Virus record (IMG/VR): IMGVR_UViG_3300002835_000006
Source of the DNA: a virus
Lineage: Duplodnaviria > Caudoviricetes
Direction: 5' to 3' (one strand)
DNA length: 64,000 bases
Positions 39-20,294 of the stretch are shown here, one piece after another (position 1 is the stretch's first letter; each line of letters starts with the position of its first letter). Below the pieces are notes generated by a model. That model was given only the letters and a program-made list of their open reading frames with translations. It ran no database searches and was not told where the DNA came from. Position numbers and translations under genes: made by a program.

Positions 39-878
39 TTATATTGGTTTAATAAGTCCTCCTTGGGTCCATTCCGTCGGAACTAAGGTCCAATTAGACT
101 CGAAAATATCTTTGGCATTCGGTCCTTTAGGTCCGAACCAAGTAGACGGGGCAATAATTTTTTTATTTTTGTTTTTGTTTAAAAAAGTTGCCCACCACGA
201 AAAAGTAGAATTTGGAATTATATGATTTTCACAAAGCCCCATAAGATACATTTCTTTCCAATCTTCATTTTCTTTTGGAAAAACAACGTTAGGAAAAGAA
301 AAATTATTCATAACGAAATCTCTACTACCAGGCCACCTTGATTCATCCTCAGTAAAAAGAAATACTGTGGAATATTCCCCAATCAATTTTAATGCTTCAG
401 AAATATATTCTATTGATATGGTTGGATGAATGTCAGGAAATTGTAAATATTCACCCCTTCTGATGTGAATAGACAGGGTTTTTGGTTGGTTCAGTTGAGG
501 ATATTTTTCTCTTAGTTCCTGAACAACATTCAATGAGGGTTGAAATGTTTCTCTTATTTTATCATCGAGACCAAACCAATTTTTGGTGCTTTGAAAGTAT
601 CCATAAAAGGATGTATTTCCTTGTAACGGGTTGATTTCGCTGTATTCAAAGGGACCTTCATGGACTGTTGTGTAGTGTTCCATTTTGTCCACGAATTTCA
701 AATTTCGGAAAACATTGTTGGTGTAATTATGTACAGGTCTTCCTTGACCAGGTGTGTTGGAATAAGGGAGAAATTCAACCTCTCTATTATGTTTCCACCC
801 TTGTGCTAATGCATGAGATGCTTGAAACAATTGATTTCCTAAACCACCCATGAAATGACAAGTAATTTTATTTCCCAT
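39..878 (-). CDS. alpha-1,2-fucosyltransferase-like glycosyltransferase (GT11)
   Basis: GGLGNQLFQ N-terminal motif, HIRRGEY (HxRRGDY) and NSTFSWW motifs typical of GT11. Confidence 0.9.
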   Translation of the reverse strand: MGNKITCHFMGGLGNQLFQASHALAQGWKHNREVEFLPYSNTPGQGRPVHNYTNNVFRNLKFVDKMEHYTTVHEGPFEYSEINPLQGNTSFYGYFQSTKNWFGLDDKIRETFQPSLNVVQELREKYPQLNQPKTLSIHIRRGEYLQFPDIHPTISIEYISEALKLIGEYSTVFLFTEDESRWPGSRDFVMNNFSFPNVVFPKENEDWKEMYLMGLCENHIIPNSTFSWWATFLNKNKNKKIIAPSTWFGPKGPNAKDIFESNWTLVPTEWTQGGLIKPI

Positions 879-892
879 AGAGTAAAATAAAT

Positions 893-1546
893 TTAATTTT
901 TATCATTTAAAAATAAAGTATCCCCCCAATTATGTGCCCATGGATGATAATATATTTTTTTATATCTTTTTGATTGCATGAAGTCTACAATGTCCTTCTC
1001 TAATTTTTGTCCTGCATACATTTCAATTTGACAAGTTTCTAATTGTATAATTCTGAAGTCAGTGGGCTGAAATAAAATTTCACTTGAATTCAAAACATCA
1101 AATTCAGAACCTTGAATATCCATATTCACATAATCAAATTCTGTCTCAAGGTTATTTTTTTTGAGAAAATCATCTATATTCACGGATTGTACCTTTACCG
1201 ACTTTATTTTTTTTATGTGGGGATATTGTTTGGAATGTTCTTTTAGTTCTAACAAAGAAGAACAACCTGTGTTACTCATATCATTACTATAAATCAGGTT
1301 GAAATCCAACTCTTTGTTTTCGTTAGATACTGCAACTTGGAAAATTTTTTGTGAAATGTGAGAATGTTTAAGAACATTTTTTTCCAAACCTTCAATCAAT
1401 TCAGGATTGGCTTCGAACCAGTAAATCAAGTCAGGATTCAATTTTAAATAAAATTCAATTTCATTTCCCAAATGTGCACCCAAATGGAGTATTTTTTTGA
1501 TTGGTCTTTCTTTGTGCAGTTCTAAAATTCTTTGATGTAAGCTCAT
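893..1546 (-). CDS. FkbM-family SAM-dependent methyltransferase
   Basis: LHLGAHLG, FEANP, SSLL and MDIQGSE (DxxGxE) motifs of the FkbM/Methyltransf_21 family. Confidence 0.85.
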   Translation of the reverse strand: MSLHQRILELHKERPIKKILHLGAHLGNEIEFYLKLNPDLIYWFEANPELIEGLEKNVLKHSHISQKIFQVAVSNENKELDFNLIYSNDMSNTGCSSLLELKEHSKQYPHIKKIKSVKVQSVNIDDFLKKNNLETEFDYVNMDIQGSEFDVLNSSEILFQPTDFRIIQLETCQIEMYAGQKLEKDIVDFMQSKRYKKIYYHPWAHNWGDTLFLNDKN

Positions 1547-1548
1547 TT

Positions 1549-2259
1549 TTATAATTCTTTATATGGTTGTTTATTTTTTAATAAATTATGATTTTCTATA
1601 ACTTTAGAGAAATTTACTTTGTGGTCGTTGATTGGGTTCCCTTCATTATAAATGTAAAGGATATCTGATATGTACCTAAAATGTTTGAGACCAGCCATTT
1701 CAACCATAGGCCAAATAAATGCAACATCTCCAGCAACAGGCCAATATACTCCATTTGGGTCTCTGAGGTCTTCGTCTTTAATTTTTTTCCATAACCAAGA
1801 TTTCCAAGTACGTAAATGGGATAATGTGAATGCTTGCTTGCGGAGATTTTCTGTTGTCTGTAATGGTCTATTAAACCCTTGACGACCGTCATGATATTTA
1901 AAAGAACCACTGGTAATCCAGACGTCTTCATCTTTATAAACTTCATCAATTTTTCCTAATACATTTGGGTTGGCTAACCAATCATCACCATTCACCTCGA
2001 CACATATCTCTTCATCAGGTAAATTTAATCCATTTATTATCTGATTGTAATTTCCGGGTGGGTAATGTTTCTCCTGATTTTCAATCAAAATGAATCTATT
2101 ATCTTTTTCGATAGCCCTTTTTATATGTTCCCGTGTATTATCTGTAGACATATCGTCGGTAATGTAACAAGTGAAATCCCTGAACCTTTGACTCATTAAA
2201 CTGAATATACATTTTTCGATATAATTTTCACAATTATATGACGCGGTTAAAATTGTCAT
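1549..2259 (-). CDS. GT2-family glycosyltransferase
   Basis: TASYNCENYI, ITDDMSTD, NGDDWL motifs; ATGA overlap with the upstream gene. Confidence 0.85.
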   Translation of the reverse strand: MTILTASYNCENYIEKCIFSLMSQRFRDFTCYITDDMSTDNTREHIKRAIEKDNRFILIENQEKHYPPGNYNQIINGLNLPDEEICVEVNGDDWLANPNVLGKIDEVYKDEDVWITSGSFKYHDGRQGFNRPLQTTENLRKQAFTLSHLRTWKSWLWKKIKDEDLRDPNGVYWPVAGDVAFIWPMVEMAGLKHFRYISDILYIYNEGNPINDHKVNFSKVIENHNLLKNKQPYKEL

Positions 2260-3887
2260 GATAAAATCTTTATATACATATTTTTTATTTCGTTAGCCAC
2301 ATTTGAACTATAGTATTTTTCAAGGTCTGTCGGAGGGTCAAATTTTTCTTTAGATGTAATTACTCCCAAAGAATCAACTTTATAAATCCACCCTGGTTTT
2401 CCCGAAAGCCAACCCTCTATGGTTGTTCTTCCAAGTTGTATTCCTGCGGTTTCGGAACAACCCTTCAAATATTTTTCAACGTTCCATGTAGAAGGAAAAT
2501 ATTTTACGTTATGTTCTCTGAGTATTGCATCTAAAAAATTACCCCTGTTTTCTCCGACAACCCATAATTCTTTATTTATTGATTGAGTATATTCAATTAG
2601 GTCCATTAAAGTTTCTCTCCTTAGATAATCTAAGGTTCCAACAAACAAAACATATCCCGACTCATTCAAATCAGATTTAACAAACTTTGATTCATCAATC
2701 GGATTGTAAATTATTTCGATATCATTTTCTGGTATTTGGAATTCGGATATTAGATTTTCTTTTATTTCAGGTCTTATTGCGATATATTTTTTTATGGAGG
2801 GGTGTATTACAGGGTTTTCCAGTTCTATTACTTCAGAATGAATTGTACAAATTTTATCAATTTCAGGATAAAAGTTTAATATTCTTTCAGCTACAGGTTT
2901 GTGTTGAATGTGAATTATATCAAAATTCACTTCGGACACCCTGTACATCATGTTCACTTGTGAAACTTTGTACCCATTACCATCATCGAATCCCCATTTA
3001 CCGTCTCCCAATTTGAAACCTGGAGCTTGTTCAAAGGACAAACATTTTATCCCATTTTTCTTAGCTAAATCTGTAAGTGGACCACCAATTTGTGACATTA
3101 CAGTTACGTCACAATTTAGTTTCTTTAGACCTCTAGCTAATTCATAGACATACAATTCAGAACCAGTGAAAGTCTTGAAATTTAGACAAGTAAGTAAAAC
3201 ATTTATTTTATCCTTATCTTTGTCGAATTGTATTTTTTGTGGTAGTTTAGAAGAATACTTTTGCACAAACAATTGTCGATTTGATTCCCATTGTTCGTTG
3301 GTCATACCAATAGATTGGTGAGTAATCCTTATGTTAGTTATTACACCAACTTTAACACCTTCCAAATAGTTTTCGAAACAAAATGGAATGTCGTAGAAAT
3401 GGAATCCTTTGAATTCTTCGTTGAAATTTTTCTTTATTCTTTTTTTGTGAATTGCTATAAATAATCCATCAACAACAACTACGGGTTTAATATCTTTACC
3501 GATGGGTTCTGAGTACTTAGATTCCCATTTTTTTGTACCTTGTTGGTGGTTTACTATCCCATACATCTTCCTACGATTTTCCCACCATTGTCCACTCTCA
3601 GGCATATGAGTTGTACCCGCAACACCTAAAATACCAAACTCTGAATTATTAAAATGTTCCAATAGTTTTGGATACCAAGCGGAGGTATCAAAGGTTATAT
3701 CGTCGTGGCATAGAACGACAATATCCGTAGTCGCTTCATTTATAATCTCATTATATATTTCTGATAGAGATTTTTCTCCGTTATTTACTTTTTCTATAAC
3801 AAGATTTTTTTTAAAACCAGAGCTTTTTATAAAATATTCTTTTAGCTTGGAATTTGATTCTCGGGTTGAATATCCTATTGTAATCAT
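2256..3887 (-). CDS. two-domain glycosyltransferase (N-terminal GT-A/GT2-like plus C-terminal GT-B/GT4-like)
   Basis: LCHDDITF and GFHFYD in the N-half; TFTGSELYVYELARGL typical of a GT4 N-terminus in the C-half. Confidence 0.75.
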   Translation of the reverse strand: MITIGYSTRESNSKLKEYFIKSSGFKKNLVIEKVNNGEKSLSEIYNEIINEATTDIVVLCHDDITFDTSAWYPKLLEHFNNSEFGILGVAGTTHMPESGQWWENRRKMYGIVNHQQGTKKWESKYSEPIGKDIKPVVVVDGLFIAIHKKRIKKNFNEEFKGFHFYDIPFCFENYLEGVKVGVITNIRITHQSIGMTNEQWESNRQLFVQKYSSKLPQKIQFDKDKDKINVLLTCLNFKTFTGSELYVYELARGLKKLNCDVTVMSQIGGPLTDLAKKNGIKCLSFEQAPGFKLGDGKWGFDDGNGYKVSQVNMMYRVSEVNFDIIHIQHKPVAERILNFYPEIDKICTIHSEVIELENPVIHPSIKKYIAIRPEIKENLISEFQIPENDIEIIYNPIDESKFVKSDLNESGYVLFVGTLDYLRRETLMDLIEYTQSINKELWVVGENRGNFLDAILREHNVKYFPSTWNVEKYLKGCSETAGIQLGRTTIEGWLSGKPGWIYKVDSLGVITSKEKFDPPTDLEKYYSSNVANEIKNMYIKILS

Positions 3888-4674: not shown

Positions 4675-5372
4675 TTTAATTGATTTAATTTTTTAATAAC
4701 ATTTATCAAAGATAGGACATCTGCTTCACAGTAATTCTTGATACCTTCGTAATCTTTTTTTGTCCAAAATGCGTCATGAACTTTATTTCCTGTAACCTCC
4801 ATAGTTTTAGGTGAAGGTACCCCTAAACAAACACACATCAACTCCAAAGATGCAATAGAACCGTAACCTCCGTATTGCCATACTTCTTTAGTGTCGAGGG
4901 CTTTTATTTCCCAAGGTTTAGTATCGTGACCTGGCAAAATTTTAGGAGGTAAAATTCCATTTATTATCATTCTTTTTGCCAACACAGGAATATCAAAACC
5001 TTTTACATTATGTCCACACAGATAGAATCCGAGTTCACCCACCTTGTGTAGAATTTTCTGAACATCTAATAATAACTTTTTTTCGTCTACATCATTATGA
5101 GATTCAATTTTTACTTCTCCTTTTTTGTTTATAAAGGCAACACTTACACAAACAATTCGATTGAATTCTGGTACAAGAGCAGACTTATTGACAAACATTT
5201 CTGATATTGGTTTGTTTGCATCCTCAGGAAATCTTTTTTGAAACCAATCAAAATAGTTTTCAAATTGAAAAGAGAGAGGCTCATTATTTTTCTTTAATGA
5301 ATCCCAATCTTTTTCAACACCAACAGTTTCAATGTCTAAAAATAATAATTTGTCAATAGGAATGTTTATCAT
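4671..5372 (-). CDS. stand-alone DEDD 3'-5' exonuclease (PolB-exonuclease-related)
   Basis: FLDIETV, GHNVKGFDIP, YCEADV exo I-III motifs. Confidence 0.85.
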   Translation of the reverse strand: MINIPIDKLLFLDIETVGVEKDWDSLKKNNEPLSFQFENYFDWFQKRFPEDANKPISEMFVNKSALVPEFNRIVCVSVAFINKKGEVKIESHNDVDEKKLLLDVQKILHKVGELGFYLCGHNVKGFDIPVLAKRMIINGILPPKILPGHDTKPWEIKALDTKEVWQYGGYGSIASLELMCVCLGVPSPKTMEVTGNKVHDAFWTKKDYEGIKNYCEADVLSLINVIKKLNQLK

Positions 5373-6634: not shown

Positions 6635-7240
6635 TTAAACTATTTTTTTAACTTTTGTAACTTTACCTTCAAAAACATGTTTACCAACTCTGAAACTGAA
6701 TTGTTCGTTGGTTTTTTCTGTGGATTCAATCAACAAATTATTTTTTCTAAGAGCCTTGTTGACCGCTTCTTCAATCATTTCTTGAATCAAGTCGTAGTCG
6801 ATTGATGATGTTTGAGGTGGAGATACCTTTTCTTTGGCACTTTCAGGAATGTAATTGCTATCTTGTTTTTTCATCAACCGTGATGCTTTTTCAATCAACT
6901 CGTTAGAAATGCTCATTTGAGGTTGTTGTGGTTGTGCAATAGGATGTTCAATCATCAATCTTTTAATCTCGTCTGGTAACTTTGAATTTTTTATTGCATC
7001 AATTGTAGGAACTCCTACAGGTTTTGTATTTTCTCTTGGTACTGAACTGAGAAGTGGTGCGGAGGAAGGCTGTTCCTGCAAGAATTCTGCTGGGATGTTG
7101 TATTTTGCGGGAGGTGCATCAAAATTTTCTAACATTTCTGAGGGTGGCAAACCAGAATTTTTATTTCTTGACACATTATTAGTTGCATCCATTATCGCTT
7201 TAGATTTCATCAGTTTTTGCATCAAATCGTCCATAATCAA
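6635..7240 (-). CDS. hypothetical protein (late operon)
   Basis: 201 aa ORF, Pro/Gln-rich middle, overlap-coupled to the WYL gene. Confidence 0.75.
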   Translation of the reverse strand: MIMDDLMQKLMKSKAIMDATNNVSRNKNSGLPPSEMLENFDAPPAKYNIPAEFLQEQPSSAPLLSSVPRENTKPVGVPTIDAIKNSKLPDEIKRLMIEHPIAQPQQPQMSISNELIEKASRLMKKQDSNYIPESAKEKVSPPQTSSIDYDLIQEMIEEAVNKALRKNNLLIESTEKTNEQFSFRVGKHVFEGKVTKVKKIV

Positions 7241-7620
7241 AATTTACTTATACATTTTATTTCTGAAGCCCTTTTATCACCATTGGGATTAAATCCGGCT
7301 TTCATTTCTGAAAAATTTTCACCTGTTGGGTTCCAAGATAAAATTTTATCAGTTCTAAATAATCTCCATCCCGGTAATACCCCATCACCTACCGCAACTT
7401 TATGTGAAGCACCTTCTCTTTCCCAGCCAGTTAGAACGGTATTACCACTATCTTTATGTATGAACAAACACACTGGTTCGATAGTTCTCAATCCTCTTCC
7501 CTTAGGTTCATCTCCATCATAGAAAATAGAAATAACCTTTTTATCGTCAATAGCATTACAGATTTCCTCCCTTGAAGCTATTTCGACAACCAAAGATTTA
7601 AAAACCTCTGTCAGTTTCAT
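7237..7620 (-). CDS. stand-alone WYL-domain protein
   Basis: ISIFY..RTIEPV..LTGW..WRLFRTDKI pattern of WYL domains; no HTH. Confidence 0.75.
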   Translation of the reverse strand: MKLTEVFKSLVVEIASREEICNAIDDKKVISIFYDGDEPKGRGLRTIEPVCLFIHKDSGNTVLTGWEREGASHKVAVGDGVLPGWRLFRTDKILSWNPTGENFSEMKAGFNPNGDKRASEIKCISKF

Positions 7621-9237: not shown

Positions 9238-11451
9238 ATGTCTTATCAGAATATTAATCAATACAATTTTAGAAAATGGAGACTTATCCCCTTCAATGAG
9301 ATTACAGACTTATGTCTTGCCAGCGATGAGAGGGATTATGACCAAGAGGTAGTTTTTTCCCCATTACTGATAGGAGAAGATGATGGAAATATAATGCCCT
9401 TTAGATTTGATTTCAATTCGTCAGCGACAACAATATGTCAGAATAATGATTGTAATTTTAGTAGTGATACAATTGTTTCAGAAAATTATTGGAACCCATT
9501 AGATATTGACCCAAATTTATGTCCTTCAGCATCCACACTTTGTGATGTTGGTCTTACAGGTATAGACAATGGTTTGGTAAAAAAAATGTCAGGAGAAACA
9601 ATCGAAATTACAACTGGTTTGTATACGAATATTTCTGATAGGTTCAGTAGATACAAGTACGATAGAAGGATGAAATTACATCCAATTACAGGATTTACAA
9701 CAACTCAAAATAGATTGTGGAATGATGATTCATATACCTATCAAATGCAATATACATATGAAAATCCTTCTGTAGGATATGTTGCGGAGTTGTTCGGGGG
9801 ATTTTTTCAAGGGTTTTACAAAATACCAGGATACGATTATCAGGTATTCCCCGAAAGAGTTGGTTTAGGATGGACTGCTGAATTTATGTTAAAACACAGA
9901 TGGTGGGGGGATACTTACGTGGGATTAAATAAAAGATACCCTGAAAACAAGGGTACATTCTTTTATATGGGCGCAAGAGCTGAAAATAAATTTTATCACT
10001 ACGCTGATGGTTCTCCAAAACAAGACACGGGTTACACGAGGGTAACTTCGGGATTGACTTGCATGCATACTTGCGAGTGTCTAAACACAGGTATAACCGC
10101 AGAACATTCCTGTATTCCTGTGTATCAACCATCAGGTGTAACATCTTACACCTGTTTGTGTGGTTGTGGTCAGCCAGTCGCCGAAGCATCTATTCCGGAA
10201 TTAGACCCGTTATACGATGGTATTTCAAACGCTCTTTCAGTCAGACTGTCGGGAGATAGTGGAAATCCAAGAATATGTGTAAAAACTTATACAATCACAG
10301 GAGCTTGTGAATTTACCGGTGTGTGTAGTTCAGGACAAACATATGTAACAGGAACATCTGTGAATGAATGGTGTTCAACAAGAGGTATATTCCACGACTG
10401 CGATAATACAAATTATATACTTCAAGAAAATTGGGTTCAAGTTGACGTCGTTTTCAGAAGAAGAGAATATTTTGAAGGGTGCGATTTGCTTGATTTAGGA
10501 GGTTTAGGATTGTTAGTTTCCGAGCAATATACTGCAACAACCGCCAATAATAGTCTGAGTTTGATAGAACCACCACTCACACATAGAGAAGTTTATGACC
10601 CTGCGACTACAGAGATTGTAAAGTTCAAGGATTCGTGGATGGAGGAAAAAAATTTCAGAATAGGTGATTTAGAAATTTATATAAACGGAAGATTGTTTAT
10701 GGTTATTTTGGATTTCGAGGAAATAATTCCAAGACTTTTGAACACACCAAAAGAAAAACAAATTGGTGTGGGTTATAATATTTCTGTTGGCGGGGGTACA
10801 CAGGGATTACATGATAATCTTACTTTTTCGGGTGGATGTCCACAAACAATAGATGATATTGTTTATCAACAAGACCCTGAATGTCTAACCACAAATGATT
10901 TAGATAATACAATTTATTCAGGACTTACCACCGATATTAAATTAGAAGAATTATTTGCCGGAAGTTTTATAGGTAATATAAGTGCATTTAGAATGTATAC
11001 TGAGCCTTTGGATGCCGCTCAAGTTGCACATAATTTTAGAGTTTTAAAAAACAGATATAACTTACTGGACCCTAATTGTCCAAATTGTGTGGTACCACCA
11101 CCATCTCCAACACCAACACCTCCTGTAACTCCAACTAATACACCAACACCTCCTGTAACTCCAACTAATACACCAACACCATCAATCACCCCTCAAGTAA
11201 TATATGGTGCTTGGTTGTGGACAAATAATGTTTGGAATAACGCTTGTAGTATGGCAGGATACGGACCAACAAACGTTTTGGTTTATTCATTTGAGCCGTT
11301 CTCTAATTTAGAACCTGGTGATTTTGTTTATGGAAATACACTTTGTAGTATCCCACCGATAAATACGAAAACTATAATAACTGATGGTAATAGATTTATA
11401 CAAATAGACCCAAGTACTGGTTTAATTGTCAACAAAGGAATATGTCCATAG
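9238..11451 (+). CDS. putative virion protein with LamG/concanavalin-like domain and Pro/Thr linker
   Basis: IYINGRL and FIGNISAFRMYTEPL LamG-type signature; PPPSPTPTPPVTPT tract; many Cys. Confidence 0.65.
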   Translation: MSYQNINQYNFRKWRLIPFNEITDLCLASDERDYDQEVVFSPLLIGEDDGNIMPFRFDFNSSATTICQNNDCNFSSDTIVSENYWNPLDIDPNLCPSASTLCDVGLTGIDNGLVKKMSGETIEITTGLYTNISDRFSRYKYDRRMKLHPITGFTTTQNRLWNDDSYTYQMQYTYENPSVGYVAELFGGFFQGFYKIPGYDYQVFPERVGLGWTAEFMLKHRWWGDTYVGLNKRYPENKGTFFYMGARAENKFYHYADGSPKQDTGYTRVTSGLTCMHTCECLNTGITAEHSCIPVYQPSGVTSYTCLCGCGQPVAEASIPELDPLYDGISNALSVRLSGDSGNPRICVKTYTITGACEFTGVCSSGQTYVTGTSVNEWCSTRGIFHDCDNTNYILQENWVQVDVVFRRREYFEGCDLLDLGGLGLLVSEQYTATTANNSLSLIEPPLTHREVYDPATTEIVKFKDSWMEEKNFRIGDLEIYINGRLFMVILDFEEIIPRLLNTPKEKQIGVGYNISVGGGTQGLHDNLTFSGGCPQTIDDIVYQQDPECLTTNDLDNTIYSGLTTDIKLEELFAGSFIGNISAFRMYTEPLDAAQVAHNFRVLKNRYNLLDPNCPNCVVPPPSPTPTPPVTPTNTPTPPVTPTNTPTPSITPQVIYGAWLWTNNVWNNACSMAGYGPTNVLVYSFEPFSNLEPGDFVYGNTLCSIPPINTKTIITDGNRFIQIDPSTGLIVNKGICP
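11111..11180 (+). repeat. 30-bp coding tandem repeat (about 2.3 copies; TPPVTPTNTP)
   Basis: caccaacacctcctgtaactccaactaata repeated in phase. Confidence 0.9.
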
Positions 11452-11495
11452 TTTCAAATTTATCAAACAAATAAAGTATTTATAAATAAAAAAAA

Positions 11496-12224
11496 ATGGG
11501 TTGTAGTAAACTTACTTTGACTAACACTGGTACAACAGTTGTTACCTTCAATTATCAAGAATGCGATAGTTCTGAATGGGAGTATCAGGTTGAGCTCAAC
11601 CCTAATGAAACAAAAAATATTTGGTTTATAACCGATACTTTTTCTTGTGCTTTTAGTTCTCAAATTATTATCGCCCAAACTGCATTTCCACCTACACCAA
11701 CACCAAGTAAAACTCCGAGTGTGACACCAACACCAACAGTTACTCCTACACCATCAACAACTCCATATTATAAAATTGATGGAATTGGTGTTTATTATTA
11801 TGCTGCAGATGACTCGAGTACAATTTCAGGTATCACAGGTAACATCTTTGCTAATGGTGTGATGATGACAAAAGAGGGACATATTGAATCGAATAAACAA
11901 GTTGCTTTCACAGGTGGTACAATCTCATACTTGGGCACAGGGTCCACATTTACTTTGATATTATCGGCTTCACCTGTTGGTGATTATTACTTAGCAAGTG
12001 ACGGTGTTAGTGGACTATATAATAAACAAATATTATCTGCATTTACTTATACTCAAACTATTACAAATACTGATTTCTTCACAGGTGTCACGAGATTTTA
12101 CTCAGGTGATACTTTATTACCTTATTCTGAAAACGGAGAAATTTCAATAAATAGAGTAAATCATCTAATTTATATCACAGGAGATTATGATACTGGATAT
12201 TTCAACATTTTGCCAAATCCTTAA
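11496..12224 (+). CDS. putative virion protein: shared N-terminal module, PT linker, variable domain
   Basis: N-terminal ~50 aa paralogous to the next gene; PPTPTPSKTPSVTPTPTVTPTPSTTP tract; TATTTAT at 11477. Confidence 0.7.
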   Translation: MGCSKLTLTNTGTTVVTFNYQECDSSEWEYQVELNPNETKNIWFITDTFSCAFSSQIIIAQTAFPPTPTPSKTPSVTPTPTVTPTPSTTPYYKIDGIGVYYYAADDSSTISGITGNIFANGVMMTKEGHIESNKQVAFTGGTISYLGTGSTFTLILSASPVGDYYLASDGVSGLYNKQILSAFTYTQTITNTDFFTGVTRFYSGDTLLPYSENGEISINRVNHLIYITGDYDTGYFNILPNP

Positions 12225-12235
12225 AAAATAAGAAA

Positions 12236-15200
12236 ATGAATTGTATAAAATATAATCTCAAAAATACGGGCGATACCGTAGTAACTTTTAACTATCAAAG
12301 ATGTGATAACGCGGAATTAGAACTTCAGGTTAAACTCGCACCTAATCAAAATAAAATTATTTGGGCAATAAAAGATACTTTGAACATCCCAAATTTTTTC
12401 AGTAATACTACTTCAGTAGAAGAAATATTAGAAACAATTTCCGAGTGTTCGACCTTGGTAAATATTTTTGGACAAGGAACTTTTTATTATAATCCATCAA
12501 CGGATGTTAGGTCTCCTCAAATGGTTATACCAAATGATATCGTACAATCATTGGATGTTGCTCACTCTGAGGAAAAATTGTGGAAACTATACAATCCTCT
12601 CCCTTTCACTTATGTGATAAGAGAATGGGGTCTCACTGGAAATCCTCCATATTTGGTATCATCAACTTATAGAGATTTAACTTTCCCTTCAAATGTTGTG
12701 ATAACTGCTCCTGCAAGCCCTGGACTTTGCCAAGCACCTAATGGTAATTTAGTTTTTATCGATTTTGAACAAAATGTTTGGGAGCTGACCGTTCCTGTAG
12801 CACCTGCAACAGTAATGACTGCAACTTTAAAATATCAGCTACCTTCAGGTTATTTTGTCGGTGGAGACTTTTTAGTAACTGTAAATAACAAATTGTTGGT
12901 TGCCTCAGATACAGAAGTCGGAGGGGTTCCATATATTGCGTTATATCAATTTGATTATAATACAGGTTCTTTTGAGTTCGAAAGTAAAACAGTTGCCATA
13001 AATAATTATTCTGCAACAGGAGGTATAGCAATATTCAACAACGAAATATACATCTATGGTGTTTATGTGTACAAAATGGATAAGACTGCACCATACGGTG
13101 GTGTCAGAACGTCATTACAAGGAGCGGGTGGCGCTTCTTCAACAATTAAATGTAATACTGCGTTTTTAATTGGTTCAGAAACTCCAACACCTACTCCTAC
13201 ATCCACAACAACACCAACTGTCACACCTACAACATTTACAGGAACAACACCAACAGCAACTGAAACAATCGGTCTGACACCGACTCCTACACCAACATCG
13301 CAAGTTTGTTATTCAAATGTGACTTTTGATATTGATTGTAATAATGCTGTGATAGAATACATTGATTGTTGTGGAGATTGCAACTATGCCGGTCCTTATT
13401 CAATAGGAACAGGATATACTTTGAGTGGTATTTGTATTCAAAATGACTCGATTACAGGTCAGCACGTTTTGAACATTCAATATAGTGGTGCTTGTAATTG
13501 TGAGGTCACCCCAACACCAACTCCAACTAATACTTCTACTCCTGAGGGTACTCCGACACCAACACCAACGGAAACTTCAATATTAGAGACACCAACCTGT
13601 ACACCTACTGTGACTCAAACACCAACTCCAACAAATACAGAAACTCCTACTCCAACTGCTACTTCAGTAATTGAGACACCAACACCTACACCTACCGAAA
13701 CCGCTACTTCAGTAATTGAGACACCAACACCTACACCTACCGAAACTGCTACTTCAGTAATTGAGACACCAACACCTACACCTACCGAAACTGCTACTTC
13801 AGTAATTGAGACACCAACACCTACACCAACAAATACAGAAACTCCTACTCCAACTGCTACTTCAGTAATTGAGACACCAACACCTACACCTACTTGTCCG
13901 TATGGAGATTGTTATCACTATGTTGAGATTACTGTTTCAGGCTTTACAGTTATAGAATGGGGACTATGTCCTGGCTCGACCTCTGCTATTATTTATTCTG
14001 CCGATACTTATCCGGCGACTTTCATAGAAGGTCCAACAATCGAATCGGATTGTTTTTCAGGTAATTCGTATACAATTTTGACGGGTTCAACACCTGTTTC
14101 TTTAAATTATTTTAACCCTTGTTGTGATGAATTGGTAACTCCTACACCTACACCAACGAACACAGAAACTCCCACACCAACCGCTACGGAGGGTATAACT
14201 CCAACACCTACACCAACTGAAGAGATAACACCAACTCCAACACCAACTTGTCCGTATGGAGATTGTTATCACTACGTTGAATTTACTATATCAGGTTACT
14301 CTGAAATTGATTGGGTATATTGTCCTGGCACTAGCTCAGGTCAGGTATATTCCGCAGAAACGTATCCTGCAACATTTTTGTTAGGACCAGGTCTTGAGGT
14401 AGATTGTTTCTCAGGTAATTCATATACGGTTGTTTCGGGTTCAACTCCTTATTCATTAAATTATTTCAATCCTTGTTGTGAAGAGTTAGTAACTCCTACA
14501 CCTACCCCATCGCAAACCTCAACTCCTCAAGTGAGTCCAACTTGTACACCAACAGAATCTGAGACACCAACTCCTACACCAGATGTCACTCCAACTTGTA
14601 CACCAACAGAATCTGAGACACCAACTCCTACACCAGATGTCACTCCAACTTGCACACCAACAGAATCTGAGACACCAACTCCTACACCAGATGTCACTCC
14701 AACTTGCACACCAACAGAATCTGAGACACCAACTCCTACACCTTCTTGTACACCAACTTTAACACCAACTTCAACACAGACTTGTTGTCAAATTACAATT
14801 TTGACCAATTCTTCAGTTGATGTGAACATAACTGATTTGACAGTAAATGGTAGTTCAGCAACTTACGTTTCTGGTCAAGCATTACCAAATACTCCTGGTA
14901 ATGGAACGATTTTGTGTTCGACAATCGTGGGCGTTGTTGATATAAGAATCTCGGTGTTAAATTCAGTTGCGGCTCAGAAGATTACTTTAACAGACAGTTT
15001 AGGTAATGTTCAGTGTTATGATATAACTGGAACTGGACCATCTAATTATGATTTCTTAGGTGTGACTTTGAATTGTACAACACCAATCACAGTATTGGCT
15101 GAGGATGGTTCATGTATCGCACCTCCAGAAACCCCGACACCAACACCAACAGCAGAAGTAACACCTACACCAACACCGACCGAAGAGGTGACTCCAACAC

Positions 15201-15667
15201 CAACAATTACACCTTCACCCTCTGAAAGTCCACTACCTGTTTCAGGATTCTCTTACAATTTGATTGCTTTACCATATAACTTGCCATCCGATGGAAATGC
15301 AATTATGAATAACGAACCTAATAATTTCGGAAGTACCGAAATAAACTTATTGGGTCTTTCATCACGAGGTTTTTATTTCAACTCTATAGACACAAGTTTA
15401 ACTGATAGAACATCTTATTATTCAGCTTTTACAGGACAAACTATAACAATTACATTTACTCAGAATGGTGACTCTGCAATATATTCAGGAGACACAGATT
15501 CTTTCAAATTTTGGTCAACTTCAGGAGATACAGGATTTGTGTTTGGTACAGGTATAGGGGTACCTCCGATACCAGAACCCTCAGGAAATGCAGTACTGAT
15601 ACAATCTGCAACAACGACATGGGTCACAGGTGACACTGTTTATGTATCGGCGGTATTGAACGTCTAA
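12236..15667 (+). CDS. mucin-like Thr/Pro-repeat, Cys-rich putative virion protein (1143 aa)
   Basis: Multiple TPTPT arrays separating beta-rich and Cys-rich modules; duplicated CPYGDCYHYVE...NPCC module. Confidence 0.75.
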   Translation: MNCIKYNLKNTGDTVVTFNYQRCDNAELELQVKLAPNQNKIIWAIKDTLNIPNFFSNTTSVEEILETISECSTLVNIFGQGTFYYNPSTDVRSPQMVIPNDIVQSLDVAHSEEKLWKLYNPLPFTYVIREWGLTGNPPYLVSSTYRDLTFPSNVVITAPASPGLCQAPNGNLVFIDFEQNVWELTVPVAPATVMTATLKYQLPSGYFVGGDFLVTVNNKLLVASDTEVGGVPYIALYQFDYNTGSFEFESKTVAINNYSATGGIAIFNNEIYIYGVYVYKMDKTAPYGGVRTSLQGAGGASSTIKCNTAFLIGSETPTPTPTSTTTPTVTPTTFTGTTPTATETIGLTPTPTPTSQVCYSNVTFDIDCNNAVIEYIDCCGDCNYAGPYSIGTGYTLSGICIQNDSITGQHVLNIQYSGACNCEVTPTPTPTNTSTPEGTPTPTPTETSILETPTCTPTVTQTPTPTNTETPTPTATSVIETPTPTPTETATSVIETPTPTPTETATSVIETPTPTPTETATSVIETPTPTPTNTETPTPTATSVIETPTPTPTCPYGDCYHYVEITVSGFTVIEWGLCPGSTSAIIYSADTYPATFIEGPTIESDCFSGNSYTILTGSTPVSLNYFNPCCDELVTPTPTPTNTETPTPTATEGITPTPTPTEEITPTPTPTCPYGDCYHYVEFTISGYSEIDWVYCPGTSSGQVYSAETYPATFLLGPGLEVDCFSGNSYTVVSGSTPYSLNYFNPCCEELVTPTPTPSQTSTPQVSPTCTPTESETPTPTPDVTPTCTPTESETPTPTPDVTPTCTPTESETPTPTPDVTPTCTPTESETPTPTPSCTPTLTPTSTQTCCQITILTNSSVDVNITDLTVNGSSATYVSGQALPNTPGNGTILCSTIVGVVDIRISVLNSVAAQKITLTDSLGNVQCYDITGTGPSNYDFLGVTLNCTTPITVLAEDGSCIAPPETPTPTPTAEVTPTPTPTEEVTPTPTITPSPSESPLPVSGFSYNLIALPYNLPSDGNAIMNNEPNNFGSTEINLLGLSSRGFYFNSIDTSLTDRTSYYSAFTGQTITITFTQNGDSAIYSGDTDSFKFWSTSGDTGFVFGTGIGVPPIPEPSGNAVLIQSATTTWVTGDTVYVSAVLNV
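13655..13894 (+). repeat. 45-bp coding tandem repeat (TATSVIETPTPTPTE, about 5 copies, one interruption)
   Basis: act/accgctacttcagtaattgagacaccaacacctacacc units starting at 13655, 13700, 13745, 13790, 13853. Confidence 0.9.
14537..14743 (+). repeat. 54-bp coding tandem repeat (PTCTPTESETPTPTPDVT, about 3.8 copies)
   Basis: Near-identical units starting at 14537, 14591, 14645, 14699. Confidence 0.9.
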
Positions 15668-15690
15668 TTTTTACAATAAATCTTATTATC

Positions 15691-15725
15691 AAACCCTCTA
15701 CTTTTGTTGAGGGTTTTTTATTTTT
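15691..15725 (+). terminator. intrinsic terminator after the mucin-like gene
   Basis: AAACCCTC-10 nt-GAGGGTTT stem followed by a T-tract. Confidence 0.8.
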
Positions 15726-15742
15726 AAAAAAAACCATTTTCA

Positions 15743-17008
15743 ATGAGCAAAATTTTTATTCAGATTGCTAGTTATCGTGACCCACAATTAGTTTTAACCA
15801 TAAAAGATATGTTAGCAAATGCAAAAAAACCAAAAAATTTGGTTATTGGTATTGCAAGACAATTTTCTGAGTCAGATAAATTTGACAATTTAGACGAATA
15901 CAAAGATGATGAACGTTTTAGAATATTAGACATTCCCTATCAAGAAGCTAAGGGGGTTTGTTGGGCAAGAAATTTAGTTCAACAATTATACTCTGGTGAA
16001 AAATATACTTTACAGATAGACTCACACATGAGATTTGTCAAAGATTGGGATGAAATCCTAATCAACATGATAAAGGGTCTTCAAAAGGATGGGTATAAGA
16101 AACCTCTACTTACGGGTTATGTACCCTCCTTTGACCCTGATAACGACCCTGCAGGAAGAGCACAAGATGCTTGGAGAATGGTGTTTGATAGATTTATTCC
16201 TGAAGGTGCAGTTTTCTTTTTACCTGAAACAATTCCTGGTTGGAGGGAAATGACAAAACCTGTACCAGCAAGATTTTATTCTGCACATTTTTGTTTTACC
16301 TTAGGTTCATTCGCAAAAGAGGTTCAACACAATCCTGAATATTATTTTCACGGTGAAGAAATCTCTATTGCTGCAAGAGCTTATACTTGGGGTTATGATT
16401 TATTTCATCCACATATTCCAGTAATTTATCACGAGTATACTCGCAAGGGTAGAACTAAACAATGGGATGATGACAAAACTTGGGGAGATAGAAATAAACA
16501 TTCACATCTTACAAACAGAAAACTGTTTGGTATGGATGGTGAAAACCAAGAGGGACATGATGGACTTTATGGTTTTGGACCTGTTAGAACACTAAGGGAC
16601 TATGAAAAGTATTCGGGTCTCTTATTCGAAAAAAGAGCTGTAGATAAGTGGTGTTTAGATAAAAACTATCCGCCAAGTCCTGCAATAGAAACTGAAGAAG
16701 ATTGGAAAAAGTCTTTCTGTACTGTTTATAAACACTGTATTGATGTTGGTTACTCCTCTGTTCCTGAAAAAGACTATGATTTTTGGGTTGTCGCATTCCA
16801 TGGACCTAATGACGAAACCCTGTATAGAAAAGATGCAGATAAATCTGAGATTACAAGACTAATGAATGACCCTGACAAATATTGTAAAATTTGGAGGGAG
16901 TTTCAAACTGATGTATTACCTAAGTATTGGGTTGTATGGCCCCATTCAGAATCAAAGGGATGGTGCGATAGATTGACGGGACAATTATCTCATAACCATG
17001 TAAGCTAA
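15743..17008 (+). CDS. GT60-family polypeptide alpha-GlcNAc-transferase homologue (Skp1 Gnt1/OGNT-like)
   Basis: IFIQIASYRD, GVCWAR, LQIDSHMRF, SAHFCF, FHGEEI..AARAYT.GYD..HP..IYHEY motifs. Confidence 0.85.
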   Translation: MSKIFIQIASYRDPQLVLTIKDMLANAKKPKNLVIGIARQFSESDKFDNLDEYKDDERFRILDIPYQEAKGVCWARNLVQQLYSGEKYTLQIDSHMRFVKDWDEILINMIKGLQKDGYKKPLLTGYVPSFDPDNDPAGRAQDAWRMVFDRFIPEGAVFFLPETIPGWREMTKPVPARFYSAHFCFTLGSFAKEVQHNPEYYFHGEEISIAARAYTWGYDLFHPHIPVIYHEYTRKGRTKQWDDDKTWGDRNKHSHLTNRKLFGMDGENQEGHDGLYGFGPVRTLRDYEKYSGLLFEKRAVDKWCLDKNYPPSPAIETEEDWKKSFCTVYKHCIDVGYSSVPEKDYDFWVVAFHGPNDETLYRKDADKSEITRLMNDPDKYCKIWREFQTDVLPKYWVVWPHSESKGWCDRLTGQLSHNHVS

Positions 17009-17751
17009 TGAAATTCCAAGAATTACCTAAGTTTGTAATAAATTTGGAATCTCGTCCCGATAGGTTAGAAGACATAAAATTTGAATTAGAATATGTTGGT
17101 TGGGATTTTGAATTATTCAACGCGATAAATAGAAATAGTTACATGGGATGTACTCTTTCTCATTTAGAAATTCTGAGAATATCTGAAGAGAGAGGATACC
17201 AAAGGGTTATGATTATCGAAGATGATTGTCAATTCATGCCTTATTGTAAATCTTTAATTCAGGACTTGGAATCACAAATATCGGACATCGAGTTCGGTGT
17301 AATGAATTTGGCACCAACATTGAATAGACCAGTAAACAAAAGTTCAAAATATGATTTATTGTTGGATATAACTAATCTTCCACCTAAACCAAACGATAGA
17401 CTGACAGAAATATTTGCAACAAATATTTTGATTTACGATTTAAAGGTGTTAGATGCTGTCAGAACAATAAAAGATTATGCATTTCAAAGCGGTGATTATG
17501 TTCTTCCAATAGACGAACATTTGGTTAAAAACGTATACCCTAAATTCCAATCTTACACTCCAATTTTACCAATAGCACCACAGAAAAATTCATATTCTGA
17601 TGTATCTCATGGGATGTATAATAATTTTTATACTCAAACATATAATTGGAATCAATACTCACCAGTAAAAATACATCACAAATTTTTGAATCAAGATACG
17701 AATAATAAATTCAAAGAAGAAAAAAAACACTTCCATTATAATGAGAATTAA
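17008..17751 (+). CDS. GT25-family glycosyltransferase
   Basis: VINLESRPDR, GCTLSH, IIEDD, PID motifs of GT25 (LgtB/Lex2B-like). Confidence 0.8.
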   Translation: MKFQELPKFVINLESRPDRLEDIKFELEYVGWDFELFNAINRNSYMGCTLSHLEILRISEERGYQRVMIIEDDCQFMPYCKSLIQDLESQISDIEFGVMNLAPTLNRPVNKSSKYDLLLDITNLPPKPNDRLTEIFATNILIYDLKVLDAVRTIKDYAFQSGDYVLPIDEHLVKNVYPKFQSYTPILPIAPQKNSYSDVSHGMYNNFYTQTYNWNQYSPVKIHHKFLNQDTNNKFKEEKKHFHYNEN

Positions 17752-18628
17752 ATTTATAACAGCAATTTATAGTGATTTGAATGGAACAGAGTTGGGGGGT
17801 AGGCCTGCCAGAGGTACTCACTATAGGTTCAGTCTTCTATCTCTTTTAAAAATGACTAATGCAGATTTTCTGTGTTATACTTCTGAAAGAGAGATAGAAT
17901 CTTTGAAAGAGTTTTTTTATAAAGAAAACAATATATCAGAAAACAAATTAAAATTTGAAATATTTGATTTGACTAATTCCAAATTCAAAGATTTAATAAA
18001 TCTTAGAAAAAATGTGGAGGACATAAAGAGAGGTGATAGATGTATTGAAATTCAATACTCTAAATTTTCTTGGTGGTGGAACGAAGATAAATCATACGAT
18101 TATTATTATTGGATAGACGCCGGATTATCACATTGTGGTTTGATACCATTGAAGTATTTGAATTTTCCTCATGGTATGAGAAGATTTTATGAGAGTACGT
18201 TGTTTAACAATTCTTTTTCAGAAAATTTAATAATCGACACAAGTGATAAATTTTTAATATTAGGGAAAGAGAATGAAAGGAATTATTGGTCTGGAACCGT
18301 GGACCAAAAATGGTATACCAACTATATAAGACAAATTCATATTATTGGTGGTTTGTTCGGTGGTCATAGAGATAGATGGGATAACATGGTTAGTACATTC
18401 GAAGATTATGTTGTAAAAATCTTGTCGGATGATTCTTGTAAGTTTTTACCTCATGAAGAACAAATAATGACTTTAATGTTTTATAACCACAACGATTTGT
18501 TTGTTAGGAAACATTTTGATATTTGGTGGTGTAGGGATAACGCACCACAAGGGACTAGTGAAGAACTATTTCTGAAAAATAAAAGTTTTTATAAAATCTT
18601 AGAGGAATTTAATAGAATATATGAATAA
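17741..18628 (+). CDS. HtrL/YibB (WlaTC)-like putative glycosyltransferase
   Basis: YYWIDAG, IGGLFGG, EEQIMT motifs shared with the next gene's N-half. Confidence 0.6.
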   Translation: MRIKFITAIYSDLNGTELGGRPARGTHYRFSLLSLLKMTNADFLCYTSEREIESLKEFFYKENNISENKLKFEIFDLTNSKFKDLINLRKNVEDIKRGDRCIEIQYSKFSWWWNEDKSYDYYYWIDAGLSHCGLIPLKYLNFPHGMRRFYESTLFNNSFSENLIIDTSDKFLILGKENERNYWSGTVDQKWYTNYIRQIHIIGGLFGGHRDRWDNMVSTFEDYVVKILSDDSCKFLPHEEQIMTLMFYNHNDLFVRKHFDIWWCRDNAPQGTSEELFLKNKSFYKILEEFNRIYE

Positions 18629-20294
18629 CATTACTTTAGTAACGGGTATTTGGGACATCGGGAGGTCTGAATTAAATGAGGGTTGGAAACGACCCTATGA
18701 ACATTATTTGGAAAAATTTGATTCTCTTTTGGATGCGTCTGAAAATATGATTATTTTCGGGGATGAGTCTTTAGAAGAATTTGTTTTTAGAAAAAGGAAT
18801 AAGGAGAATACTCAATTTATTAGAAGACCAATATCTTGGTTCAGAGAAAATGAGTTTTTTGAAAAAATACAACTGATAAGAAACAATGAAGATTGGAAAA
18901 ATCTTGCGGGGTGGCTTAGAGACTCAACTCAATCGAAATTAGAAAACTATAATCCTTTAGTCATGTCCAAAGTTTTTCTACTTCATGATGCCAAGATTAT
19001 GGACCAATTTAATTCGGAATATATGTTTTGGATTGACGGAGGTATTACAAACACCGTGCACTCCGGATATTTCACACACGACAAGGTTTTAAATAATCTT
19101 CCTAAATACATCTCAAAGTTTTCTTTTATTTGTTTTCCATATGAGGCAAATAATGAAATTCATGGATTTGAGTATTCAAGATTAAATGAGATTGCCGGTA
19201 CTAAAGTAGACAAAGTTGCAAGAGGAGGATTCTTTGGTGGACCAAAGTATACTATACCAGAAATAAATTCAATTTATTATGGTTTATTGAAATCTACATT
19301 AGACCAAGGGTTGATGGGTACCGAAGAATCTATTTTTAGTATAATGTGTTATAAACACTCAGATTTAATAAATTATTTTGAGATAGAAGGTAACGGTCTC
19401 ATAGGTAAATTTTTTGAGGGTTTGAAAAATAACAATTTAGAAGTAAAATCTGAGAGCGGATTTGTCTCACAGGAAATGTTAGATACAAATAAAGTTGGTT
19501 TATATGTTATAACATTTAACAGTCCAGAACAATTTGAAACTCTGATACAATCGATGAATTCTTATGATAAAGATTTTTTATTAAAAACTAAAAAATTTCT
19601 TTTAAATAATTCTACAGACAGGACAACAGATTTAACTTATAGTCAATTATGTGATGATTATGGTTTCGAAGAAATAAAAAAGGATAATTTAGGTATCTGC
19701 GGTGGAAGACAGTGGATTGCAGAACATTTTGACACAGAAACGGATTTAGATTATTACCTTTTCTTTGAGGACGATATGTTCTTCTATCCGAATCAAGAGG
19801 TTTGTAAAAATGGTTTCAACAGATTCACAGATAATCTTTATTCAAAATCTTTAGAAATTGTTAAAAAAGAAAATTTTGATTTTTTAAAATTAAATTTTTC
19901 AGAGTTTTTTGGTGATAATAGTACTCAATGGTCTTGGTATAATGTCCCTCAAGATGTAAGATTAAAGTTTTGGCCTGAAAAACCCCGACTCCCAAACATG
20001 GGATTAGACCCAAATGCCCCAAAAACAAAATTCACCAAAATAGATTCCCACAAAGGTATACCATATGCAACAGGTGAAATATACTATTGTAATTGGCCAC
20101 AAATAGTCTCAAGGCCCGGTAATAAAAAGATGTTTTTAGAAACAACTTGGGCTCACCCATTTGAACAAACGTGGATGAGTCATATGTATCAGCAGACTGT
20201 TGCGGGCAAACTCAAACCAGGGTTACTTCTTATGACACCAACCGAACATAATAGGTTCGACCATTACGATAGGAAGTTACGTAAAGAGTCATAA
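18621..20294 (+). CDS. HtrL/YibB-like domain fused to a C-terminal GT-A-like domain
   Basis: TLVTGIWDIGR, SKVFLLHDA, FWIDGG, GGFFGG, GTEESIF; then YLFFEDDMF. Confidence 0.65.
   Translation: MNNITLVTGIWDIGRSELNEGWKRPYEHYLEKFDSLLDASENMIIFGDESLEEFVFRKRNKENTQFIRRPISWFRENEFFEKIQLIRNNEDWKNLAGWLRDSTQSKLENYNPLVMSKVFLLHDAKIMDQFNSEYMFWIDGGITNTVHSGYFTHDKVLNNLPKYISKFSFICFPYEANNEIHGFEYSRLNEIAGTKVDKVARGGFFGGPKYTIPEINSIYYGLLKSTLDQGLMGTEESIFSIMCYKHSDLINYFEIEGNGLIGKFFEGLKNNNLEVKSESGFVSQEMLDTNKVGLYVITFNSPEQFETLIQSMNSYDKDFLLKTKKFLLNNSTDRTTDLTYSQLCDDYGFEEIKKDNLGICGGRQWIAEHFDTETDLDYYLFFEDDMFFYPNQEVCKNGFNRFTDNLYSKSLEIVKKENFDFLKLNFSEFFGDNSTQWSWYNVPQDVRLKFWPEKPRLPNMGLDPNAPKTKFTKIDSHKGIPYATGEIYYCNWPQIVSRPGNKKMFLETTWAHPFEQTWMSHMYQQTVAGKLKPGLLLMTPTEHNRFDHYDRKLRKES

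Follow-up and report, generated by a model that had tools for sequence, protein, structure and literature searches.

A GT60-family glycosyltransferase cluster beside Thr/Pro-tract proteins in a large phage: a candidate mucin-type O-glycosylation module

The locus and its described counterparts

Few phages are known to have glycosylated particles, and the enzymes responsible are largely unmapped. The virions of the jumbo phage XacN1 contain at least two glycoproteins that stain with periodic acid-Schiff (PAS), which the authors credit to the two annotated glycosyltransferases of the phage, ORF328 and ORF334 (2018; PMC5852040). That paper and its supplement name neither the enzyme family nor the modified proteins, nor do they name proteins with Thr/Pro linkers as virion components (PMC5852040). 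Glycosyltransferase family 60 (GT60) has as its founder Gnt1, the Skp1-hydroxyproline N-acetylglucosamine (GlcNAc) transferase of Dictyostelium. The polypeptide (pp) alpha-GlcNAc-transferases of this family are related to the GT27 enzymes and start mucin-type glycans on Ser/Thr-rich domains in protists; the characterised GT60 and GT27 enzymes all glycosylate polypeptides, typically Ser/Thr/Pro-rich mucin domains (PMC8724618). Here we describe a locus in a 64-kb stretch of phage DNA of about 34% G+C (IMG/VR record IMGVR_UViG_3300002835_000006; the whole stretch is called the window below), in which three genes for proteins with Thr/Pro tracts (TP tracts) directly precede a cluster of four genes that begins with a GT60 homologue. 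The genes and the site that parts the two sets are:

P0001, 9238..11451, plus strand: 737 aa; conserved body of about 615 aa with ConA/LamG-like features, TP tract at aa 620-654, C-terminal cargo domain of about 85 aa
P0002, 11496..12224, plus strand: 242 aa; N-terminal module of about 50 aa in common with P0003, TP tract of 36 aa, C-terminal domain
P0003, 12236..15667, plus strand: 1143 aa; N-terminal module as in P0002, six TP tracts linking Cys-rich globular modules
Hairpin with T-run resembling an intrinsic terminator, 15690..15725, plus strand: between P0003 and the GT60 gene; -13.3 kcal/mol, z -2.9
P0004, 15743..17008, plus strand: GT60-family (PF11397) glycosyltransferase of the GT-A type with a C-terminal beta domain of about 100 aa; candidate initiating polypeptide GlcNAc-transferase
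P0005, 17008..17751, plus strand: GT25-family glycosyltransferase (PF01755); candidate extender
P0006, 17741..18628, plus strand: probable HtrL/WlaTC-like glycosyltransferase, weakly supported
P0007, 18621..20294, plus strand: HtrL_YibB domain at aa 3-255, in fusion with another domain that is maybe GT2-like

The original prediction for this DNA, made from its letters and open reading frames (ORFs), had listed three consecutive genes with TP tracts at 9238-15667, and the ORF positions and translations agree with it exactly. Its tightly overlapping four-gene cluster was likewise found, with overlaps of 1, 11 and 8 nt along P0004-P0007.

We give a probability of about 0.5 to the reading that these genes form a phage-encoded mucin-type O-glycosylation module acting on the TP tracts. 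The module would be cytoplasmic. P0004, a soluble GT60 protein related to both the protist polypeptide alpha-GlcNAc-transferases and the animal GT27 polypeptide N-acetylgalactosamine (GalNAc) transferases, would start the chain within the TP tracts. The sugar that it adds would most likely be GlcNAc, drawn from the UDP-GlcNAc of the host, and the acceptor most likely Thr and possibly hydroxyproline. Its substrates would be modular phage proteins, among them the products of the three genes just upstream as well as paralogues from other parts of the genome, each built of a conserved N-terminal body or module, a TP stalk of variable length and an exchangeable Cys-rich or lectin-like cargo. These proteins would probably be exposed fibres or decorations of the virion, giving it a glycosylated, mucin-like surface. 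P0005, P0006 and P0007 would extend the chain, perhaps with the GT11, GT2, GT4 and methyltransferase genes upstream, and exchange of the extension set between related phages would diversify the glycan. Glycosylation of a virus's own proteins by enzymes that it encodes is known; for phages, the enzyme family and the type of substrate have not been described before.

The GT60 enzyme and its partners

The assignment of the gene at 15743..17008 to GT60 in the original prediction is borne out by profile search. CAZy GT60 corresponds in Pfam to PF11397, which P0004 matches with 226.8 bits (cut-off 21, E 7.2e-67); its match to phrog_24687 has an E of 8.5e-165. Sequence searches of the solved structures with P0004, both as a single sequence and as a profile, gave nothing useful, and it seems that no GT60 structure has been deposited. 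We therefore aligned P0004 with its homologues and folded it, which gave a model with a predicted local distance difference test score (pLDDT) of 94.8 and a predicted template modelling score (pTM) of 0.90. Structure searches with this model agree with the family assignment. The top match among reviewed UniProt (Swiss-Prot) entries is Dictyostelium Gnt1 (E 9.6e-25, 25% identity, template modelling score 0.64), and polypeptide GalNAc-transferases occupy the next 29 places, with E values of about 1e-10. In the search of solved structures, ppGalNAc-transferases of GT27 take the first 29 ranks (Z 19.3-22.3) and superpose on the model with a root-mean-square deviation of 3.3-3.7 A over about 270 residues at a sequence identity of 11-16%; the best GT-A structure from outside GT27 reaches Z 16.9.

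Three residues of P0004, D93, H95 and H230 (a D-x-H...H motif), are invariant across the 40 aligned sequences, that is, P0004 and 39 homologues down to 35% identity. The spacing resembles that of the D-x-H and distal His of GalNAc-T2 (D224, H226 and H359), which we take to be the Mn site of that enzyme, and from this role in GT27 we presume that D93, H95 and H230 are metal ligands. P0004 is soluble, with neither a signal peptide nor a membrane anchor, and its C-terminal beta domain of about 100 residues is kept across the phage clade. A complex predicted for P0004 with a 41-residue Pro/Thr peptide and Mn scored 0.00; the prediction was made without controls and counts neither way. Judged by profile match and predicted fold, P0004 is a well-supported GT60 member with its active-site motif intact, and is very likely a polypeptide glycosyltransferase. 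The TP tracts are its most plausible acceptors.

Two other GT60 contexts have a bearing on what proteins of this family act upon. A bacterial chromosomal gene (L092:10001-17386) encodes a protein of 2461 aa with several GT60 domains, 2-oxoglutarate/Fe(II) (2OG-Fe(II)) oxygenase domains of the prolyl-4-hydroxylase type and AhpC-TSA domains; its make-up recalls the Skp1 pathway, in which hydroxylation precedes GlcNAc addition, with the two activities fused. At L091:14-3117, a gene for PqqD, a peptide-recognition element, and an ScmC-family gene are flanked by two GT60 genes, an arrangement that suggests a peptide-glycosylating cluster resembling those for ribosomally synthesised and post-translationally modified peptides. 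The PqqD neighbour and the fusion with prolyl-hydroxylase-type oxygenase domains link the GT60 family to peptide-directed functions. Our genome-wide statements are drawn from complete relatives of the window phage (317-326 kb in IMG/VR, one of them with direct terminal repeats), G001-G003 among them. Each of these three encodes three 2OG-FeII_Oxy_3 oxygenases similar to prolyl-4-hydroxylases (for example G002:28772-29065, 152970-153233 and 162023-162214). One of those in G002 lies beside a DnaB-like gene, and the window has no such oxygenase at the syntenic spot. Since the relatives have these oxygenases and the closest characterised enzyme modifies hydroxyproline, hydroxyproline is a possible acceptor alongside Thr.

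The calls made beforehand for the partner enzymes fared unevenly. P0005 had been called GT25, and it matches PF01755 above threshold (43.8 bits, cut-off 24, E 3.4e-11), with its best stretch confined to residues 46-106. P0007 had been read as an HtrL domain followed by a GT-A domain. Its residues 3-255 do match HtrL_YibB (PF09612; 74 bits, cut-off 24.1, E 1.9e-20), at a score so far under the NCBIfam equivalog cut-off that we regard it as a family member and not as an orthologue of YibB. Its C-terminal half has no Pfam or NCBIfam match, a sequence search of solved structures with P0007 gave nothing useful, and only a feature-based lead to GT2 speaks for the GT-A half. For P0006, said to be HtrL-like, Pfam gave no match; its language-model neighbours (HtrL_YibB in 51% of members) and a weak BLASTP match to the N-terminal half of P0007 (E 0.001 over 51 residues), with a common GG(L/F)FGG...EE motif, lend the claim weak support. 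P0006 is 28-34% identical to genes at the equivalent cluster position in the phages XacN1, Xoo-sp13 and RAS14.

IMG/VR contains 368 loci related to P0004, and our first set of relatives consists of the best 80, with GT60 proteins 83-93% identical to P0004. GT60 and P0007 are present in all 80, and GT60 is the best-conserved gene of the cluster; GT25 ranges from 49 to 93% and P0006 from 58 to 93%. P0007 is the most constant partner of GT60, and its homologues in XacN1-like phages are 40-44% identical. The interval between GT60 and P0007 is a swap site, where about eight loci have three to seven different small genes in place of GT25 and P0006:

Swap-site loci, L032:3664-8400, L061:2755-7792 and six others: replacing genes include those for GT10-type fucosyltransferases, GT2-like proteins and methyltransferases

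A constant GT60 gene next to exchanged genes fits a fixed initiator with a variable extension and glycan. In distant contigs GT60 is again accompanied by HtrL genes, a carbamoyltransferase gene, FkbM and a sulfotransferase-like gene.

The window holds a second set of glycan genes upstream of the TP-protein genes:

Further glycan genes, 39..3887, minus strand: GT11, FkbM methyltransferase, GT2 and a GT2+GT4 fusion; may feed the pathway

The GT11 gene is of the fucosyltransferase type. With these genes we count a weakly matching GT1-like gene at 5369-6580, also on the minus strand; dUTPase and exonuclease genes are interposed, and the set reaches the edge of the window.

Such a complement of enzymes could also build or alter a glycan of the host envelope (lipopolysaccharide, capsule or S-layer), for example to block superinfection, with the cluster and the upstream GT11, GT2 and GT4 genes acting together and phage proteins not among the targets. 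By their family descriptions, GT25 and HtrL_YibB are best known from lipopolysaccharide loci and are typical of those for the core, a point that also counts against a module directed at phage proteins. Fucosyltransferase-type and FkbM genes are frequent in O-antigen loci, and a comparative study of jumbo phages reads similar glycosyltransferase clusters as modifiers of the outer polysaccharide of the host (PMC7824862). The anchor gene of the cluster is nevertheless GT60, whose nearest structural relatives all act on polypeptides; the annotated genes of the window include no lipid-carrier transferase, flippase or polymerase; and XacN1, with the same core cluster, has glycosylated virion proteins. 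On balance we consider an envelope target unlikely.

Thr/Pro-tract proteins and their association with GT60

In their translations P0001 and P0002 have one TP tract each, of 35 and 36 aa, and P0003 has six, which together cover 367 aa of the 1143-aa protein and contain 137 Thr, 23 Ser and 90 Pro. A run of three (S/T)P units occurs in none of the 41 large ORFs of the window other than the three TP genes (about 44 in total), which indicates that the tracts are not compositional background. Within the tracts there are near-perfect tandem repeats at the DNA level, of 45 nt in 3.9 copies (98% match), 54 nt in 3.8 copies (99%) and 30 nt in 2.4 copies (100%), and we take the tracts to be still expanding on account of these repeats. 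Pro/Thr/Ser-rich tandem-repeat domains of the type that serves as acceptor in mucin-type systems are thus present in P0001-P0003.

The non-repetitive parts of these proteins are modular. P0002 and P0003 have in common an N-terminal module of 50 residues (60% identity, E 2e-16). The body of P0001, its first 615 residues, is 72-81% identical across 120 homologues, whose total lengths run from 654 to 1273 aa. Nearly all of them continue with a Thr/Pro tract that varies greatly in length, after which come differing cargo domains. Some homologues have an extra Laminin_G_3 domain, and the ConA/LamG-like features of the P0001 body come from language-model neighbours that carry Laminin_G_3. An anchor, a stalk and exchangeable distal domains are, from the sequences, what would be expected of fibres or decoration proteins. 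Pfam and NCBIfam gave no match for the globular parts of P0001-P0003, and a sequence search of solved structures with P0001 gave nothing useful.

The setting of these genes can be read from the remainder of the window. Its tail part encodes a tail sheath of 1065 aa, a tail tube, baseplate hub and wedge proteins and a head-tail adaptor-like protein, and its replication part a family-B DNA polymerase, an SNF2 helicase, gp32-like and DnaB-like proteins and ribonucleotide reductase; from this content we conclude that the window is part of a large myophage. The motif TATTTAT recurs before genes, 11 of its 19 forward occurrences lying within 70 nt upstream of plus-strand gene starts:

TATTTAT, 14 sites 10-45 nt upstream of gene starts: for example 9222, 11477, 20300, 30947, 35107, 36609, 38650, 59391 and 61792 on the plus strand; 9202, 25038 and 26551 on the minus strand

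It precedes P0001 (16 nt upstream), P0002, the sheath, the tube, a baseplate wedge gene and large ORFs of the tail module, and on the minus strand the adaptor-like gene. TATTTAT is, from its positions, likely a phage promoter element found mostly before structural genes. The terms 'late genes' and 'virion proteins' of the original prediction are not observations; the TP proteins may be late products located in the virion. In the relative G002, a TP-rich gene of 495 aa adjoins a gene for a collagen-like tail fibre of 1805 aa. The baseplate genes of the window had also been considered as neighbours of the TP-rich gene at the start of G002, which tblastn did not bear out.

For the pairing of GT60 with TP proteins we used the 66 loci of the first set that have at least 1.5 kb of upstream sequence. 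In 65 of the 66, GT60 is directly preceded by TP-rich ORFs on its own strand, and in only two loci is there a TP-rich ORF elsewhere in the flanks. The first 612 residues of P0001 are 67-92%, mostly 70-77%, identical among the best 80 of the 368 loci, and in the close relatives the P0001 homologue is followed by at least one ORF that starts with the N-terminal module of P0002 and P0003.

The pairing reappears, rearranged, in more distant lineages, which weigh more heavily than the close relatives. GT60 homologues occur in the jumbo phages XacN1 (where the homologue is ORF334), Xoo-sp13, CM1 and RAS14, with 44-49% identity in XacN1, Xoo-sp13 and RAS14. The original prediction, which knew of no GT60/mucin-type pathway in a jumbo myophage, needs amending in view of these homologues and the XacN1 virion glycoproteins reported in 2018. 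A nucleotide search with the glycosyltransferase cluster found nothing in isolated phages. In XacN1, Xoo-sp13 and RAS14 the gene order is GT60, a carbamoyltransferase, a P0006-like gene, an ORF of about 246 aa (not in RAS14) and a P0007-like gene, and the cluster converges on the gene for a giant protein of about 3300 aa that follows baseplate wedge genes and has TP linkers near its C-terminus. On a small phage contig (L093; GT60 48% identical), a Cys-rich ORF with (TP)6 lies two genes upstream of GT60 and downstream of tail genes. In another locus (L163; GT60 37%), the gene immediately after GT60 encodes a protein of 537 aa whose Cys-rich modules are joined by four (TP)n tracts, the longest being (TP)11.

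Sites coding for TPTPTP number 29 in XacN1, at no fewer than eight loci, versus 0 for the reversed control pattern, and 19 in RAS14 versus 1. The region 124048-133104 of XacN1 (L167) contains six tandem hypothetical genes, ORF232-237, for proteins of 401-746 aa, with TPTPTP-coding sites in ORF232-236 and none in ORF237. These genes are a paralogous array of TP-linker proteins in a phage with PAS-positive virions. Several TPTPTP-coding sites are likewise present in XacN1 ORF384, whose product of 2823 aa is annotated as a glycerophosphodiester phosphodiesterase. For O-glycans densely set on such domains, the PAS-positive bands of this distant relative are the one experimental hint.

A second set of relatives comprises 70 intermediate loci with GT60 proteins 37-79% identical to P0004, each scored for an ORF with a TP run within 10 kb of GT60. 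Such an ORF is present in 42 of the 70. One GT60-bearing relative without TP tracts, one of the two partial genomes described below, contains an ORF of 486 aa with an (STAA)n repeat 3 kb upstream of GT60 (L099:5444-6904), which could be an alternative Ser/Thr-rich acceptor. The co-occurrence expected from the original prediction thus holds in part: it is seen in 65 of the 66 close loci and recurs down to 37% identity, and it fails in the 28 of the 70 intermediate loci that have no TP gene within 10 kb. The GT60/TP link is recurrent, and neither exclusive nor universal.

The observations that weigh against a module acting on the TP tracts are the following. Because the close relatives are close kin, the 65/66 adjacency amounts to conserved synteny and not to independent association. 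TP-tract genes occupy four to five separate loci in each complete relative genome of about 320 kb, so that roughly 30% of the genome is no more than 10 kb away from a TP gene. To the 28 loci without a nearby TP gene belongs one genome whose TP genes are all at remote loci, and in two partial genomes (G005 and G006, 54% and 74% complete) the captured part has no TP gene. Pro/Thr linkers are also common unglycosylated spacers in bacterial proteins. As to expression, TATTTAT is not strictly a mark of structural genes, as it also precedes the DNA polymerase gene; a motif scan of the window found none upstream of the GT60 gene and its cluster; and the terminator-like hairpin parts P0003 from the GT60 gene. 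In view of the hairpin and the missing motif, the enzymes may be expressed separately from their proposed substrates, which is compatible with the model and gives it no support. As to the virion location, protein searches found no homologue of the P0001 body or the P0003 N-terminal region in isolated phages, and the AlphaFold model of the P0001 body has a mean pLDDT of 32.5, with no fold readable.

Several of these facts would be met equally if the cluster glycosylated other phage or host proteins, for example at specific sites on the capsid, sheath or fibres as in mycobacteriophages, with the TP tracts plain unglycosylated spacers and the adjacency an inherited gene order. The GT60 fold indicates a polypeptide acceptor without saying which; TP genes at several unlinked loci, their absence near GT60 in 28 of 70 loci and from what was captured of G005 and G006, and the terminator-like site and different promoter context that divide the two gene sets all speak for it. 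Against it stand the recurrence of the adjacency, rearranged, in lineages at 37-49% GT60 identity, and the preference of characterised GT60 and GT27 enzymes for just such Thr/Pro-rich sequences (PMC8724618). We hold protein acceptors other than the TP tracts to be unlikely.

The replication genes raise the question of DNA as acceptor, in which case the enzymes would glycosylate modified bases of the phage DNA to evade restriction. The cluster adjoins the DNA polymerase gene and is near dUTPase/dCTP-deaminase-like and exonuclease genes, and phage glycosyltransferases that hypermodify DNA are well known, going by the citations in the accessible part of one paper (PMC12619734). The complete relatives do encode a long protein of the thymidylate synthase family, but some 90 kb separate its gene from the cluster, with GT60 located near 69 kb in G002. 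Further, GT60, GT25, HtrL, GT10 and GT11 are not among the families known for DNA glycosylation, and the fold of P0004 matches polypeptide transferases. DNA is a highly improbable acceptor.

Two other genes of the window may be recorded here. Between the glycan genes and those for the TP proteins there is a small ORF at 7237-7620 (minus strand) that weakly matches the WYL domain (E 4e-4). At 25045-26541 (minus strand), between the adaptor-like gene and the SNF2 helicase gene and preceded by TATTTAT, is a complete Fe/Mn superoxide dismutase. It matches both Pfam domains, with E values from 1e-25 to 1e-40, and is fused to another stretch of about 270 residues that has no family match.

Comparison with known systems

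Full-text literature searches that combined phages with GT60 or PF11397 gave nothing relevant. Four core glycosyltransferase groups are listed in a 2025 paper on freshwater 'moraphages', which may be the same lineage as the window phage; the paper treats virion glycosylation only as a possibility (PMC12619734). The phage group of the window is extremely common in lake metagenomes, with its 368 IMG/VR loci and thousands of near-identical public proteins, and the locus supplies candidates for the initiating enzyme family and for the acceptor sequences, together with a variable cassette for extension. If the TP tracts are indeed glycosylated by this module, mucin-type O-glycosylation, which is considered a eukaryotic trait, would have a counterpart in bacterial viruses; the virion glycoproteins of XacN1, so far unassigned, would be explained; and recombinant GT60 with Pro/Thr peptides would be a tractable system for the effects of glycans on phage adhesion, stability and recognition. 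We put forward more tentatively a further-reaching version, in which this abundant freshwater jumbo phage clade and the XacN1-like phages would make a true mucin-like glycocalyx: a cytoplasmic GT60 would start O-GlcNAc on Thr, or on Pro hydroxylated by P4H-like oxygenases of the phage, in the hypervariable TP stalks of plug-in proteins that serve as fibres or decorations, and a swappable extension cassette would diversify the glycan between strains. No bacterial virus before it would have had a mucin-type pathway for the O-glycosylation of proteins.

Among viral systems, the mycobacteriophages and the giant virus PBCV-1, with its capsid and fibril glycosylation, resemble what is proposed here, going by the accessible part of the published accounts, in that virus-encoded glycosyltransferases modify the virus's own structural proteins without recourse to the protein-glycosylation machinery of the host. 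Freeman et al. reportedly found in 2023 that mycobacteriophage virions are glycosylated, with glycans on the C-termini of capsid and tail-tube subunits. Those positions differ from the Pro/Thr tandem repeats proposed here, and the accessible part of that account reports no GT60.

The protist GT60 enzymes, namely Dictyostelium Gnt1 acting on hydroxyproline of Skp1 and the mucin-type pp-alphaGlcNAc-transferases of Dictyostelium and T. cruzi acting on Thr, belong to the same Pfam and CAZy family as P0004 by profile match. P0004 is soluble like the cytoplasmic Gnt1, which is also its closest relative by predicted structure, and has Thr/Pro-rich candidate acceptors encoded beside it. It differs in its viral and prokaryotic setting and in its extra C-terminal beta domain of about 100 aa. 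In the Skp1 pathway the extension enzymes belong to GT2, GT74 and GT77, unlike the GT25 and HtrL proteins of the window.

The mucin-type system of animals, with its GT27 enzymes and Pro/Thr/Ser domains, has in common with the locus the D-x-H motif with a distal His and the Pro/Thr/Ser-rich tandem-repeat substrates of variable length. P0004 is without the ricin-type lectin domain, would act in the cytoplasm where the animal enzymes act in the Golgi, and would likely transfer GlcNAc in place of GalNAc.

XacN1, Xoo-sp13, CM1 and RAS14 have the same core cluster, with a GT60 homologue (44-49%), a P0006-like gene and a P0007-like gene (40-44%). In XacN1 and its relatives, as in the window phage, the cluster is near the DNA polymerase gene and there are many genes for TP-linker proteins. 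XacN1 differs in having a carbamoyltransferase where the window has GT25, and its TP tracts are short linkers, whereas those described here extend over hundreds of residues.

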